64,000 nucleotides of DNA from a phage, in sequence record PQ478073.1; one strand, written 5' to 3'. This document shows, piece after piece, positions 6,729-61,543 of the stretch; position 1 is the first letter of the stretch, and each line of letters begins with the position of its first letter. A model generated the notes under the pieces. It saw only the letters and a list, made by a program, of their open reading frames with translations, was not told where the DNA came from and made no database searches. A program made the translations under genes and the position numbers.

Positions 6729-6775
6729 ATGTGAACATATTAGATTCTTGTGATATAATGTTCACATCTTTTTTT
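6729..6775 (+). terminator. hairpin terminator whose loop carries a -10 element
   Basis: 10-bp inverted repeat ATGTGAACAT / ATGTTCACAT followed by T-run. Confidence 0.5.
6731..6759 (+). promoter_or_regulatory. sigma70-like promoter with extended -10 (TGaTATAAT)
   Basis: TGATATAAT about 35 nt upstream of gene start at 6792; weak -35. Confidence 0.45.
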
Positions 6776-6791
6776 GATAACGGAGATATAG

Positions 6792-7178
6792 ATGAATACA
6801 AGTTCAATCCTAAAAGCAATTGGTGGTGTTTTACTCATTGAAGTAAAAGGTGAACCAAAGCTATGCTGTTTAGAAGATATGAAGAATACAAAACACTTCA
6901 GTACTGGTCAGATTTTCAATGCCATTCGTATTCTAAATGACAAATCCATTGCTGATTATGGAAAAGTTTGGCCTGTATATCAAAATGCTGATGGTGATAT
7001 CAGTACTGATTGGAAAACAATTGAGGCGGTACGACAAAGTTGTGAGAGTGATTGGGACTTCATTGTTGAAGTTTGTGATCAACTACAAGAAGATGTTCCA
7101 GAAATTGTCGAACGAAAAGAAGTCCTAGCACGACTTGAAAAATTCCGTCACGGAACACTACAGTATGACACAATCTAA
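6792..7178 (+). CDS. hypothetical protein
   Basis: ORF track; GGAG RBS. Confidence 0.65.
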   Translation: MNTSSILKAIGGVLLIEVKGEPKLCCLEDMKNTKHFSTGQIFNAIRILNDKSIADYGKVWPVYQNADGDISTDWKTIEAVRQSCESDWDFIVEVCDQLQEDVPEIVERKEVLARLEKFRHGTLQYDTI

Positions 7179-7227
7179 TCTGCTTATTAAAAATATCTAA
7201 TTAACATTATATAAAAGGAATTTAAAA

Positions 7228-7533
7228 ATGGAAGACAATGGAATGAAATTTGATATGTTTGAAGGTGTACCAGAGTTCGATTTCAATAAACTTGAAAATG
7301 GTGAAGAATCAGAACTAGTAAGTGTTACACTAAAATCAGATACCAAAAAGAAATATTCCCCATCAGTTCGTTCACGTTCTCAAGAAGAATATGAAACCTT
7401 CATTGAGAGTATTCATTACGAAACGTTCCATCATGCAGATGGTACTCCGTATGAAGTTCGTGTTACAGTACTGAAGCCTGAAGTAAACCCAATGGAAAAT
7501 CTACGTCCTGTTTACTGCTGGGCAAGCCACTAA
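7228..7533 (+). CDS. hypothetical protein
   Basis: ORF track; AAGGAA RBS. Confidence 0.6.
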   Translation: MEDNGMKFDMFEGVPEFDFNKLENGEESELVSVTLKSDTKKKYSPSVRSRSQEEYETFIESIHYETFHHADGTPYEVRVTVLKPEVNPMENLRPVYCWASH

Positions 7534-7542
7534 TAAACCAAA

Positions 7543-7574
7543 GGACGGGATATAATATCTCGTCTTTTTTTTTG
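7543..7574 (+). terminator. rho-independent terminator
   Basis: stem GGACGGGATAT/ATATCTCGTCT then 9-T run. Confidence 0.6.
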
Positions 7575-7585
7575 TCTGGAGATAT

Positions 7586-58191: not shown

Positions 58192-58690
58192 TGGTGAAGA
58201 TAGTTCTCTTAGTGATTCTGTGATTGCATCATTCGGAACTAATAAAAACAGTTCTTTTATTATATCTGGATGGACTGGAATGACTGATTCTGAAAATAAT
58301 GTTAAGATAAAAGCTAAAGCTACTAACGAGAATCATGAAACAGAATGGGTAACATTATATGATAGTGCAAGTAATAAGTTATATAATGTATTAAGTTCTA
58401 ATAATATTTTAATTAATCCACTGTCGGGCAATGCTGTTTTTAATATTAATTTATCTGATAGAAATACTACTATTTCGATTGGTGCGGCTCCTACTGAAGT
58501 TTATTCAATTACCATCCTATTAACACAACAAACAGGTTCAAACCTAGTTAATTGGGGTTCTAATGTTAAATGGTCATATAACAGACCAGTTGTTCTTTCT
58601 TATGAAATTGGTGAAAAAGATATTATTTCATTAGAAACATATGATAAAGGAGTTACATGGTACGGTGCATTAATTAGAGCAGGAGTATGA
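58154..58690 (+). CDS. Asn/Ser/Gly-rich fibre-like protein (3' part of frame-split gene, or separate gene)
   Basis: ORF track; no clear RBS of its own. Confidence 0.5.
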   Translation: MMVLTLSVLGSIDGEDSSLSDSVIASFGTNKNSSFIISGWTGMTDSENNVKIKAKATNENHETEWVTLYDSASNKLYNVLSSNNILINPLSGNAVFNINLSDRNTTISIGAAPTEVYSITILLTQQTGSNLVNWGSNVKWSYNRPVVLSYEIGEKDIISLETYDKGVTWYGALIRAGV

Positions 58691-58691
58691 T

Positions 58692-61481
58692 ATGTTAAAC
58701 AATAATATTGATAATATTGTACAACTTCTTTATGGGCATCACAAATTTATTGAAAGAAATACTGGTGATACAATAGACCCAACAGTACAACATTATGTGG
58801 TGAATAATCAGGGTGTTTTGGCGAACAACCGTCATTTTATTAACTATTCTGCAATGGAAGGTCAACCAAACGGTGACGGGACAACAGAAGGTCAAAGTCT
58901 ATTAATTTTAGGATACATTTATGCGTATCTGGCAACAAATGATCCAATGTTTTTAGATAAAGCCAAATGGTACTGGGATGCATATCATCAGTACTTTTAT
59001 GCTGGACGTGAATTACCAGATCCACCTACACCACTACAATGTAACTGGATAGTTAATGCCAAAGAACCTATATTGGCTAACTGGCCTTTAGCTGATGATG
59101 GATGGCCTACACATGGTGGTTTCAAGGGTGTAGAATTTACATTTACAAATGGACAATGTAAAATACCACATGGTGCACCTTATTATGGTCAGTTCTTGGA
59201 TAAAGTAACATTTGCATTCAAAGGTGCTTTAGCATGGAACCAAATAAATGCGTCAGTAAAAGCATTATTACCAGATGGTAGTGTTGATTGGGATACACCA
59301 GGTGAACAATATGATGTTGACTGGATTATCGATTTCATGGGTAGAAAAATCGACTGGGATGGTAATATTTTAGCAGAAGGTTTTGACGAATCTGAAAAAG
59401 GAACTGTTCAATTAAAGAATACAACAATTAATGGTGTATATAAATTAAATTTTGCAAATCGTCAACCAGTAGAATATGGTGGTGTGATAATTCAACGAAA
59501 TGAAATGCAACACAACCGCCCACTTCATGTTCCAATTGATTTGGAATTTGCGGATAACGCATCAGATGCAGAATTGTGGTTTAGTGATGCTTCTTATTTG
59601 TTATATAAAATAACAAAAGAAAGAAAACATTATTTGGGTTGGAAATGTTCACTACTAACGTGTTATGCTTATGGTGATATTGACTCCAGAGATAAATTTT
59701 TCAGACAAAGTACAATTGTAACCACACCATTCACTGATGGTATTTCCTATGAATATTTTTATCCAAGTGATGCTATTGCTAAGTTTGGTAGAAATTCTCT
59801 AGGATATATTACTATCAGGCAAGACCAAAGTGCACAAAGTACAATGGAACAACAAGCTATTTGGTTCAGGGTCAATGCTGATTCTAAATTACTTGTAGAC
59901 TATGGTGGTGTATGTGATGATGGTAAGCCGTTATCATTTAAACCAGTACTTGAATTGTCAAAAACAAAAAATGACCATGATGTTGTTCGTTATCGTTGTG
60001 GCTTACCGGAAAGTAAAGACCAAAATATCACACATTCATTAACACCTTTAAGTGCATTTGTTAGAGAAAAGAAAGCAGATGGTTCCCCTTATATAATTGC
60101 TGATAGTAGAATTGTTGTTCCTTATGGTGCAGCTACGTCCGAAATGATATATAGTACTGATATATTAGTTACACGCCGCGATACCATTAATCAGTTAGTT
60201 TGTGGTGAAGATGATGGTGCTGTTATTGGATTTTGGCTATTAGCAACAAATAAGTCTGAAGTTAAATCTTTTACCTATCGTTCATATGAAGATGATTACA
60301 ATATAAGAATTGTAGATGATAATGGTTGGAGATGGTGGTGGATGATTCCTGCAACACACGGGGAATGGACTACAATCACACTAAGTCCCGATACATTACG
60401 TTTATCTGGGTATCAGCCAAATCATCCAAGTTCTGACCCAAGACCAGATGCACCAGTTTATAGTGAACTAGAAGATATTACTATTTTACCTGATACAACC
60501 CCAGTAGATGGTGTTGCTGCAATAATTGATTGGTATTGTATTAATGACATTCCAGAATTATACACGGATGCTGACGGTGATGACTATACTATGACATTTT
60601 CAATAACAATTGCAGGTGAATCACCATATACTGCACAGTTAGGGGATTGTGTAATCAAAGATTATTTGTTAAACTCATTGCATTACACACCAGGAACAAT
60701 ACCATTTTCTAACATCACTGACCCGTATGCGAACCAGTATTCAGGATGGCGTGGTTTACCGTATCCAGGTTATCAATATCCTGTGATATATTGTTTTAAA
60801 GACCAGCCAGTAGATAACACACGCTTAGGAAACATGTTAAGCTTTATGAAAGATTCCCAAACATGGTTTACTCAACAATTCGGTACTGTTGGTCCGTGTG
60901 CACAAGCATATGTTTGGAACCGCTGGGATAACTTAAAATATGGTGAACCAGATACATTTACTATGCTACATTGGGGTGATCAAGCATGGAGTGGGTATGA
61001 ACCACGTGCGTTCTTTGGGGCTGCCAGAGCATGGCAAGAACTCGCAGAGAGAGGAATTGAACCACCAGCAGATCTTGTTGAATTTTGTGAGAATTGGATT
61101 CACTTTTTAATTCAATTTCAAAAAGATAATGATGGTCGTTCACCAACAATCTTCAATAAAGATGGCACAGTTGAAGGTCCAGATTGGGACTTTACAGGTC
61201 ATATGTGTGGGTTGTGGTTAGCTGGGGCTTGTGCTGCTGGATTGGCTGGATGTAAAATAGAAGGTCTAACAACACTCGCTGATAACTTAGTTCTCGAACT
61301 TCAAAAGAATTATGTTATTGTAAATCCAGGTTCACCAATGAATGGTTCATGGAGTCCAGCAGTTAGAGAAGGTACTGATAATGGTATGTTTTTTGGTTTC
61401 TGGGCAGGTGAGATTATGCGTGGATTGGGATTATACTCAATGTACCGCTTAAACACACCAAATCGTTTCCGTGATTTATAA
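58692..61481 (+). CDS. large protein (929 aa), possibly a tail-associated glycosidase/depolymerase
   Basis: ORF track; N-terminal region reminiscent of alpha/alpha-toroid glycoside hydrolases (weak). Confidence 0.6.
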   Translation: MLNNNIDNIVQLLYGHHKFIERNTGDTIDPTVQHYVVNNQGVLANNRHFINYSAMEGQPNGDGTTEGQSLLILGYIYAYLATNDPMFLDKAKWYWDAYHQYFYAGRELPDPPTPLQCNWIVNAKEPILANWPLADDGWPTHGGFKGVEFTFTNGQCKIPHGAPYYGQFLDKVTFAFKGALAWNQINASVKALLPDGSVDWDTPGEQYDVDWIIDFMGRKIDWDGNILAEGFDESEKGTVQLKNTTINGVYKLNFANRQPVEYGGVIIQRNEMQHNRPLHVPIDLEFADNASDAELWFSDASYLLYKITKERKHYLGWKCSLLTCYAYGDIDSRDKFFRQSTIVTTPFTDGISYEYFYPSDAIAKFGRNSLGYITIRQDQSAQSTMEQQAIWFRVNADSKLLVDYGGVCDDGKPLSFKPVLELSKTKNDHDVVRYRCGLPESKDQNITHSLTPLSAFVREKKADGSPYIIADSRIVVPYGAATSEMIYSTDILVTRRDTINQLVCGEDDGAVIGFWLLATNKSEVKSFTYRSYEDDYNIRIVDDNGWRWWWMIPATHGEWTTITLSPDTLRLSGYQPNHPSSDPRPDAPVYSELEDITILPDTTPVDGVAAIIDWYCINDIPELYTDADGDDYTMTFSITIAGESPYTAQLGDCVIKDYLLNSLHYTPGTIPFSNITDPYANQYSGWRGLPYPGYQYPVIYCFKDQPVDNTRLGNMLSFMKDSQTWFTQQFGTVGPCAQAYVWNRWDNLKYGEPDTFTMLHWGDQAWSGYEPRAFFGAARAWQELAERGIEPPADLVEFCENWIHFLIQFQKDNDGRSPTIFNKDGTVEGPDWDFTGHMCGLWLAGACAAGLAGCKIEGLTTLADNLVLELQKNYVIVNPGSPMNGSWSPAVREGTDNGMFFGFWAGEIMRGLGLYSMYRLNTPNRFRDL

Positions 61482-61482
61482 C

Positions 61483-61511
61483 TTGACATAGAAAAAGTAA
61501 TTATGTATAAT
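61483..61511 (+). promoter_or_regulatory. sigma70 consensus promoter TTGACA-17-TATAAT
   Basis: perfect hexamers with 17-nt spacer. Confidence 0.6.
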
Positions 61512-61512
61512 C

Positions 61513-61543
61513 AGAGAACTTCATATGGAGTTCTCTTTTTTTA
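61513..61543 (+). terminator. rho-independent terminator directly after the promoter -10
   Basis: 8-bp stem AGAGAACT/AGTTCTCT then T-run. Confidence 0.6.

Follow-up and report, generated by a model that had tools for sequence, protein, structure and literature searches.

Short intergenic gaps in a 64,000-nt stretch of phage DNA (sequence record PQ478073.1; the whole stretch is referred to here as the window) hold promoter-like boxes that are interlocked with terminator-like hairpins, with examples between positions 6729 and 61543. The question raised by these compact modules is whether they are genuine transcription signals and, if so, of which kind. The window is ~96-98% identical to Escherichia phages slurp01, PBECO4, 121Q, G17, and phAPEC6, and by this measure its source is identified as an Asteriusvirus coliphage (121Q/PBECO4-like) of the RaK2 group, a set of ~350-kb jumbo myoviruses. 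Its open reading frame (ORF) map comprises 116 genes, on the + strand throughout, with a coding fraction of 93.8% and a median intergenic length of 28.5 nt; the map matches the G17 annotation wherever the two were compared. Genome-wide counts were made on a complete close relative, ECO103 4-12-1 (OR844650.1, below ECO103), and TH47, whose genes are ~78-88% identical to those of the window, was used for footprinting. In the literature searched, no account of promoters was found for RaK2-group phages of E. coli. In the G17 annotation several of the same hairpins were independently called terminators by ARNOLD, and no promoters are annotated.

The modules are most probably the ordinary signals by which a RaK2-group jumbo phage starts and stops transcription, overlapping in short gaps. 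The elements are real and belong to kinds that are already known, namely a promoter class of phages CBB and GAP32 and a composite layout resembling the promoter-early stem-loops (PeSLs) of T4-like phages. In the scheme that we propose, three promoter classes would operate: (i) near-consensus TTGACA-17-TATAAT promoters, which the host RNA polymerase in its unmodified form presumably uses early in infection; (ii) a class specific to the clade, TG(G/A)GAC-N14-TGnTATAAT (M-type); and (iii) T4-late-like TATAAATA boxes. Intrinsic terminators would end many transcription units. Placed in a row, terminator, promoter, and leader would need ~85-95 nt, and many gaps offer just 50-75 nt; there the elements overlap, with the -35 box in the hairpin, the -10 box in the loop, or the hairpin right after the -10 box, and in two cases the -35-like element also overlaps the upstream stop codon. 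Such an arrangement would provide insulation, in that incoming transcripts would meet the whole hairpin and stop and those of the embedded promoter would start inside or past its 5' arm and escape. The features concerned are collected in Table 1.

Table 1. Promoters, hairpins, and the structured RNA gene of the window. Energies are for the read-through RNA, followed by those predicted for the module's own transcript.
Position	Strand	Feature	Hairpin z	Energy (kcal/mol), read-through; own transcript	Downstream	State in TH47
822-860	+	Terminator hairpin 822-844 and T5, overlapped by weak promoter-like TTGACT-17-TACATT				Entirely deleted; module dispensable
6729-6776	+	GTGAAC-N14-TGATATAAT (6731-6759) nested in imperfect hairpin (arms 6729-6738 and 6760-6769), then T7	-2.8 (weaker)	-12.1; no hairpin (predicted start past 5' arm)	Gene start 6792	GTGAAC changed to GTGGAC; pairing kept through G-U; T9 tract
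8432-8460	+	M-type promoter TGAGAC-N14-TGATATAAT; TGA (8432-8434) is stop of ORF 7586-8434			Structured RNA 8505-8949	Almost invariant
8463-8499	+	Terminator hairpin 8463-8491, 12 bp, loop 5, then T8; ARNOLD terminator in G17	-6.7	-17.3 (-17.6 in the z-score fold); -12.1, -8.9, -9.1, -4.6 for starts +6 to +9	Structured RNA 8505-8949	
8505-8949	+	Structured non-coding RNA gene, ~450 nt; core closed by helix 8559-8562/8935-8938				
14514-14542	+	M-type promoter AGGGAC-N14-TGATATAAT; no terminator			Start codon 14574, 40 nt away	GGGAC and TGATATAAT kept; spacer changed at 5/14 positions
22284-22312	+	M-type promoter TGAGAC-N14-TGATATAAT; TGA is stop of ORF 21981-22286			GTG start 22344	Hexamers kept, spacer altered
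30000-30028	+	M-type promoter TTGGAC-N14-TGATATAAT			ClpP-like gene (30063)	Upstream gene non-homologous, yet GTAGAC-N14-TGATATAAT present
39305-39338	+	Perfect palindromic hairpin 39305-39329, 11-12 bp, directly 3' of PhoH-like stop codon, carrying -35-like TGGGAC; TGATATAAT (39330-39338) immediately after	-5.0	-16.5 (z-score fold)		Hexamer and TGATATAAT kept; spacer and flanks differ
48570-48605	+	Terminator 48570-48588 and T-run, then T4-late-type TATAAATA box			898-aa gene at 48643	TATAAATA kept while flanks change
54689-54729	+	Terminator, 10 bp, loop 4, TTTTCTTTT, overlapping sigma-70-type promoter TTGACG-17-TATAAT; TTGACG (54701) in loop and 3' arm, T-tract as spacer, TATAAT 54724-54729	-6.8	-14.1; no hairpin (start past whole hairpin)	Gene start 54752	Whole module invariant amid diverging flanks
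61483-61543	+	TTGACA-17-TATAAT (61483-61511), then hairpin 61513-61536 and T7	-4.4	-12.7; -3.5 to 0	Gene start 61556	Missing; adjoins 3.4-kb indel
63333-63364	+	Terminator hairpin and T9; promoter-like TTGAAT-17-TATTAT at 63304-63332 just upstream		-12.7; -3.0 to 0		Hairpin conserved with changes

Promoter motifs and their conservation

All of the promoter and hairpin sites named in a preliminary description of the window were found, within 1-2 nt of where it had placed them. The extended -10 sequence TGATATAAT occurs 11 times, on the + strand only, where 3.1 occurrences are expected on both strands together; six of the 11 are intergenic, and five of these six sit 40-43 nt before a start codon. 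In the modules under discussion it begins at 6751, 8452, 14534, 22304, 30020, and 39330. TATAAT by itself is not enriched in the window (135 seen, 134 expected). When the extended -10 box was combined with an upstream element as x(G/T)(A/G)GA(C/A)-N14/15-TGnTATAAT, eight copies were recovered on the + strand and none on the - strand against an expectation of 0.09, a 90-fold enrichment, with copies additional to those of the preliminary description lying inside genes at 4969, 18399, and 24545. A motif search over a full genome, which had been suggested as a check, bore out the pattern. Of the TGnTATAAT sites in ECO103, 73 point in the direction of the surrounding genes and 22 the other way, and the co-oriented sites have a single information peak at -20 to -15 from the TG, reading T-G-G-G/A-A-C, with an A-rich stretch farther upstream. 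The element x(G/T)(A/G)GA(C/A) stands at a spacing of 14-15 nt in 26 of the 73 sites, compared to 1.7 expected (p ~3e-24); its forms include TGGGAC (8), TGAGAC (4), TTGGAC (3), and TTGGAA (3), and the variants TGGAAC, TGAAAT, and TTGGAA are also present.

The preliminary description had distinguished two kinds of -35 hexamer, TGAGAC at 8432 and 22284 and GGGACA or TGGACA at 14515, 30001, and 39310, and this distinction was not upheld. Placed in a common register, sites 8432, 22284, 14514, 30000, and 39310 read TGAGAC, TGAGAC, AGGGAC, TTGGAC, and TGGGAC (the last at N15), which is one degenerate family, x-G/T-R-G-A-C, with the consensus TGGGAC. The TGAGAC variant occurs because its TGA doubles as the stop codon of the upstream gene: wherever TGAGAC occurs in the genome (four sites, 8432 and 22284 among them), the TGA is the in-frame stop of an upstream ORF of 101-387 codons, and at the single GTAGAC site the TAG is likewise the upstream stop codon.

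The upstream element links the window to a promoter class described elsewhere in the clade. Three promoter classes were predicted for CBB, an RpoD-like class with an UP-like element, a "divergent RpoD-like" class with a TGAAACG -35 sequence, and an ATAAATA late motif, the second and third of which were also reported in GAP32; the second class is given in Table S6 of that study as TG(A/G)AAC-N14-TGnTATAAT (Buttimer et al. 2017, PMC5259590). The window sites, from the same clade, have the same geometry, with a TGrrAC hexamer exactly 14 nt upstream of the TG of an extended -10 box, TGnTATAAT, and the class is homologously placed across the clade before all conserved copies of the structured RNA considered below. 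The consensus sequences differ in detail, being TGAAAC/TGGAAC with TGGTATAAT in CBB and GAP32 and TGGGAC/TGAGAC with TGATATAAT in the window. We take the window TG(G/A)GAC-N14-TGnTATAAT sites to be the local form of the divergent RpoD-like promoter, a class not reported for E. coli Asteriusvirus phages in the literature searched.

Sigma-70-type promoters are also overrepresented. Matches of at least 11/12 to the consensus number 14 on the + strand and one on the - strand, versus 3.1 +/- 1.8 in dinucleotide shuffles, and the consensus scan confirmed both near-consensus promoters proposed earlier, TTGACG-17-TATAAT at 54701 and TTGACA-17-TATAAT (12/12) at 61483. Perfect TTGACA-N16/17 sites were noted inside coding sequence on the + strand at 2476, 4202, 10512, 11235, 20174, 28288, 28892, 29871, 62548, and 63565, 90-680 nt from the next start codon, and these may be internal early promoters. 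The TATAAATA/ATAAATA boxes of the window match the late motif reported in CBB and GAP32. Such T4-late-like boxes were observed at 48589-48605 and ~58026-58050, directly after a terminator or hairpin and upstream of large genes, and would appear to be a third class of promoter, arranged just as compactly. Enrichment of k-mers upstream of all ORF starts was uninformative because most genes abut.

Could such motifs be chance matches in AT-rich DNA? Generic matches of at least 9/12 are no commoner than in shuffles, TATAAT alone is at its expected frequency, and the 7540 TATAAT, the 63304 site, and the 822 promoter do resemble chance. The strand bias, the 90-fold enrichment of the composite motif, the fixed distance to the start codon, and the conservation refute this explanation for the core set, and we regard it as very improbable overall. 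Across ECO103, confident promoters number 111 co-oriented and 12 anti-oriented. The strand bias, the fixed start-codon distance, and the preservation of hexamers while spacers drift support the view that the sites behave as real promoters and terminators, as does the presence of the M-type promoter ahead of all copies of a conserved RNA gene (below) in phages of nine host genera.

Overlap of promoters with terminator hairpins

Counted per 20 kb, there are 19, 13, and 18 hairpins of terminator type where ~7 are expected, a 2- to 3-fold enrichment. The z values range from -4.3 to -6.8 (-4.4 to -6.8 among those cited in the preliminary description), with that at 6729 (-2.8) as the exception. A G+C-rich stem, a loop of 3-8 nt, and a U-tract directly 3' of the stem, the features of a canonical terminator, were found at 822, 8463, 54689, 61513, 63333, and 48570. 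Hairpin and promoter overlap in five to seven short gaps of the window: 6729, 8463, 39305, 54689, and 61513, plus 822 and 63333, where the promoters are doubtful. The interlocking reported in the preliminary description was reproduced, with the -10 box within the 6729-6769 hairpin (followed by T7) and hairpins beginning 3 nt (8463) and 2 nt (61513) past the -10 box. Several geometries are represented. At 54689 (and at 822 with its weak promoter) the loop and 3' arm hold the -35 box and the T-tract forms the spacer; the hairpin carries the -35-like element at 39305; the promoter is nested in the hairpin at 6729; and the hairpin starts 1-3 nt past the -10 box at 8463 and 61513 (and at 63333 with its doubtful promoter). 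Beyond the sites described earlier, overlaps of hairpins with promoter-like sequences were noted at 822, 7540, and 63304; there the hairpins hold up and the promoters do not. The TATAAT in the loop at 7540 has no -35 box and no TG, and the loop differs in 121Q and ECO103, which leaves a terminator only; the promoter at 63304 is probably not functional, its putative -10 box not being conserved in TH47. Hairpins around the -10 boxes at 22300 and 30017 were rejected as weak (-8.1 and -5.1 kcal/mol), and that at 22300 is not conserved in TH47.

To compare a read-through RNA with one initiated at the module itself, the hairpin was folded in both, with the latter starting 6-9 nt past the -10 box (Table 1). 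The preliminary description had claimed that a transcript starting at such a promoter would lack the full stem. The predicted energies agree with this at 6729, 61513, and 63333, and trivially at 54689, and agree only in part at 8463, where starts 6-8 nt past the -10 box leave a hairpin of -9 to -12 kcal/mol with U8 in the module's own transcript. Escape from the embedded terminator is thus plausible for most modules in these folding models.

Several observations weigh against reading the modules as start and stop signals that overlap in this way. At 8463, escape would succeed only if initiation took place at least 9 nt past the -10 box, and so is not secure. Two of the hairpins depart from the canonical terminator form, 39305 by the lack of a U-tract and 6729 by a loop of 12-19 nt and an imperfect stem. 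Three of the composite motifs and most of the 11/12 sigma-70 matches are intragenic, 90-680 nt before the next start codon. Overlap is also rare, with ~7 of the 111 high-confidence ECO103 promoters having a terminator stem that starts within -80 to +60 nt of the -10 box, and because of this rarity it is a packing solution in some gaps and no general design rule; the physical interlock of several modules, as proposed in the preliminary description, is upheld, and it is the exception among promoters. Finally, motifs, statistics, conservation, and hairpin energetics were determined directly, and start sites, timing, termination and its efficiency, and the polymerase or sigma factor acting on class (ii) we infer, since transcript data for any Asteriusvirus were not found in the literature searched. 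Most of the overlaps are found where genes are 53-74 nt apart; the exception, 8432/8463, is at the start of a 324-nt gap. Since 53-74 nt leave no room for terminator, promoter, and leader next to one another, we interpret the overlap as a form of compaction that brings insulation as a useful side effect.

The two atypical hairpins invite another interpretation, that a dimeric DNA-binding regulator overlapping the promoter uses the inverted repeats at 6729-6769 and 39305-39329 as its operators and that they are not RNA hairpins. Both are near-perfect palindromes over the -35 region, 39305 without a U-tract and 6729 with a long loop, and CBB encodes a helix-turn-helix regulator beside its sigma gene. 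The two palindromes are, however, unrelated in sequence, and 6729 retains a T7-T9 tract and G-U-compatible changes. A hairpin directly follows the PhoH-like gene in 13 of 13 relatives recovered, where the stems are unrelated to one another and mostly are canonical terminators with T-runs; in the Asteriusvirus lineage the -10 box stands in place of the U-tract. We consider operators unlikely.

Composite elements of this kind are known as PeSLs from the T4-like phages RB49/phi1, T4/PST, and KVP40/nt-1 (Arbiol et al. 2010, PMC2839356; Comeau et al. 2014, PMC4122927). Each consists of an intergenic sigma-70-like promoter and a terminator stem-loop, with promoter and terminator activity shown experimentally; the five subclasses are defined by stem-loop position and include overlap with the -35 box, placement between the boxes, overlap with the -10 box, and placement just downstream of it, and a middle-promoter version (PmSL) is also known (PMC2839356; PMC4122927). 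The roles proposed for them are to stop upstream transcription and restart it, and to recombine through the ~100-bp similarity between copies (PMC2839356; PMC4122927). The window modules likewise have a sigma-70-like promoter in an intergenic element before a Shine-Dalgarno sequence and start codon, with a stem-loop overlapping or abutting the promoter in the described positions (at 6729, 8463, 39305, 54689, and 61513), and the same transcriptional role would be proposed for them. They differ in that the ~100-bp similarity between copies is lacking. Local alignments between modules score 12 on average and 24 at most, versus 9.3 +/- 1.9 for shuffled sequences, and only 10-24 nt around the -10 box are shared; the modules are not a repeat family and make no obvious recombination substrates. 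Moreover, most ECO103 promoters have no stem-loop, and the phage is a distant, 350-kb relative of the T4-like phages. By analogy, then, the window modules would work like PeSLs and yet are not members of the PeSL repeat family.

We also asked how well the modules fit a role as PeSL-type mobile cassettes that chiefly promote recombination and gene shuffling, and we find this improbable. The architecture fits PeSL subclasses, several breaks in homology with TH47 fall at modules or terminators (20636, 30019, 33427, and 61556) and at the 14557-14586 duplication, and the 61483 module travels with a 3.4-kb insertion. Against this, the sequence common to the modules is 10-24 nt around the -10 box rather than ~100 bp, breakpoints at gene boundaries are expected anyway, and the junction of the ECO103 deletion, which removes window 58077-61453 next to the 61483 module, lies outside that module. 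That junction is a 10-nt microhomology (CACA-CCAAAT) within coding sequence, and PeSL-style recombination was rejected as the origin of this deletion.

The structured RNA at 8505-8949 and the polymerase for M-type promoters

The M-type promoter at 8432 stands upstream of a structured RNA gene with a conserved extension to ~9003. The family to which this RNA belongs has exactly four copies in ECO103; one of these, at ECO103 ~208.1-208.6 kb, corresponds to a position inferred to lie just beyond the window end. The 62 RaK2-group phage records, which span nine host genera, each contain four to five copies, annotated almost never, and the RNA is ~98% identical between species whose genes are ~84% identical. 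An alignment of 12 diverse copies predicted 77 pairs in 14 helices, with compensatory double changes in 47 of the 77 pairs. In this alignment 98.2% of cells were paired, compared to 37-45% when the partners were slid, and the covariation score was 0.49 versus 0.05-0.09; none of 500 shuffles reached the observed values. The RNA contains an invariant 28-mer, UAGAGAGAAACnGnnnnACCCGCUUUCG, and most copies have their own terminator. The hairpin with T8 at 8463, between promoter and RNA, occurs only in the window copy and its orthologs and is absent from the other three paralogous copies.

Each RNA copy in each genus examined has its lineage's form of the M-type promoter 40-75 nt upstream. This is TGGAAC or TGAAAC-N14-TGGTATAAT in GAP32, Serratia phage BF, Yersinia phage fHe-Yen9-04, and metagenomic relatives, and TGGGAC, TGAGAC, TGGGAA, or TGGGAT-N14-TG(A/C)TATAAT in the phages of E. 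coli; 121Q and ECO103 differ at an orthologous site, with TGAGAC in the former and TGGGAA in the latter. Rfam gave no match at the gathering threshold over the whole window and none at E<=1 over 8400-9150, nhmmer detected no homology between the family and the highly expressed ncRNA001 and ncRNA002 of PA5oct, and no mention of a ~450-nt RNA was found in the literature searched. The family is apparently undescribed, and it may be among the 10,006 unnamed candidates of a 2023 IMG/VR survey. Its possible roles include those of a ribozyme, a scaffold, or a primer RNA of the ColE1-RNA-II or T4-ori type that would mark several origins of replication.

Other observations concern the same RNA. Downstream of its terminator most copies have a conserved CCCC-TGC-GGGGGG hairpin (8956-8968) and then CAAAyCCCGTCAA, and this hairpin may be part of the RNA element or a separate DNA signal. 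A full-length RNA copy with a TGGTATAAT promoter (locus 3500-4110) is present on a 620-kb contig of Citrobacter amalonaticus P55 (NZ_JBALIF010000001.1), which is probably a jumbo phage co-assembled with its host.

Which polymerase reads the M-type promoters bears on the preliminary description, which had called the recurring extended -10 promoters host-type. Their recurrence was borne out; the term host-type is unproven for a clade-specific class in a phage group with a sigma-70-family factor of its own. An extended -10 box with a perfect TATAAT generally suffices for E. coli sigma-70. Extended -10 sigma-70 promoters and the T4 middle (MotA/AsiA) promoters resemble the window class in having a TG one base before a strong -10 box and a non-canonical upstream element, and by this analogy the class is plausibly independent of canonical -35 recognition. 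The T4 MotA box is (a/t)(a/t)(a/t)TGCTTtA, with TGCTT centred near -30. The window element differs from it, being TGGGAC at the -35 position with a 17-nt spacing to TATAAT, and the MotA-box model fits poorly, with the peak being TGGGAC at -20 to -15 from the TG and TGCTT being absent.

A refinement of the start-and-stop-signal explanation, rather than an alternative to it, is that TGrGAC-N14-TGnTATAAT is read by host core polymerase with a phage sigma-70-family factor, or by a phage-remodelled sigma-70, and forms a middle temporal class; we hold this possible, at somewhat below an even chance. Clade-wide it is TGGGAC/TGAAAC, not TTGACA, that is conserved, and the coexistence of these sites with perfect TTGACA promoters suggests two specificities. 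ECO103 encodes, at 18832-19785, a homolog of the CBB/GAP32 sigma-70-family factor (CBB_513 in CBB; E 1e-55). In CBB the divergent class was reported to lie chiefly ahead of genes for DNA metabolism, and the authors pointed out a sigma factor encoded by the phage (PMC5259590). On the other side, GGGACA and TGGACA, read one register along, agree with TTGACA at 4-5 of the 6 positions, and an extended -10 box with a perfect TATAAT is in general enough for the E. coli factor. In ECO103 we also observed, at 18272-19785, that a terminator, an M-type promoter, and a copy of the structured RNA come immediately after the sigma-70-family gene. Tentatively, and with rather more doubt than confidence, we suggest that TGrGAC-N14-TGnTATAAT is a dedicated phage-sigma promoter and that one of its conserved jobs, at 8432 among other sites, is to express the undescribed ~450-nt RNA kept in four to five diverged copies per RaK2-group phage. 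Were this so, the hairpin and T8 at 8463 would be an attenuator of one RNA copy.

Other features of the window and significance

Copies of a further motif, AGTACTGAA, are dispersed through the window, 49 in all (25 on the + strand and 24 on the - strand) versus 0.7 expected, a 70-fold enrichment. Nearly all of them are intragenic, in several reading frames (for example 27938-27949, 43265-43276, 48234-48245, and 63639-63650), and at four places the motif forms the full palindrome TTCAGTACTGAA. ECO103 has ~198 copies, and AGTACT occurs there 919 times against roughly 120 expected by a rough hand estimate from base composition. The motif looks like a DNA-level recognition site unrelated to promoters.

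The 3.4-kb segment at 58077-61453 encodes 178-aa and 929-aa ORFs, neither with a Pfam match. It is missing from ECO103 and apparently also from slurp01, and TH47 has 1.3 kb of other sequence instead. Relatives of the 929-aa protein, 40-53% identical, are found on unrelated non-jumbo viral contigs, which suggests horizontal acquisition. IMG/VR searches anchored on the 282-aa and 929-aa proteins returned 121Q alone or unrelated non-jumbo contigs. Further indel or replacement points relative to ECO103 lie at 10213-10277, 33828-34028, and 45505-45532, with ECO103 insertions of ~800 nt at the first and ~430 nt at the last. In TH47 a 30-nt region with the ribosome-binding site and start (window 14557-14586) is present twice, on either side of a ~900-nt insertion that separates the 14514 promoter from its gene; this looks like a gene cassette placed directly behind a promoter. 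A match in a Lewinella genome was discarded as a chance 30-mer. The tRNA/tmRNA scan of the window gave no match, Pfam searches of ten neighbouring proteins gave a single match (ClpP-like), and the ClpP-like gene was not found in the loci of other genera examined for promoter conservation.

The value of the promoter and terminator finding itself is modest. It supplies a usable map for Asteriusvirus coliphages, which are therapy candidates and whose published annotations lack promoters, and it replaces two -35 variants with one element whose TGA can double as a stop codon. It also carries the composite promoter/terminator layout of T4-like phages over to the jumbo phages of the RaK2 group, where the layout is a solution to packing and not a repeat family. 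More is gained indirectly: the promoter class points to a covarying ~450-nt RNA family, which merits separate follow-up, and possibly to a phage sigma specificity, and both are directly testable.

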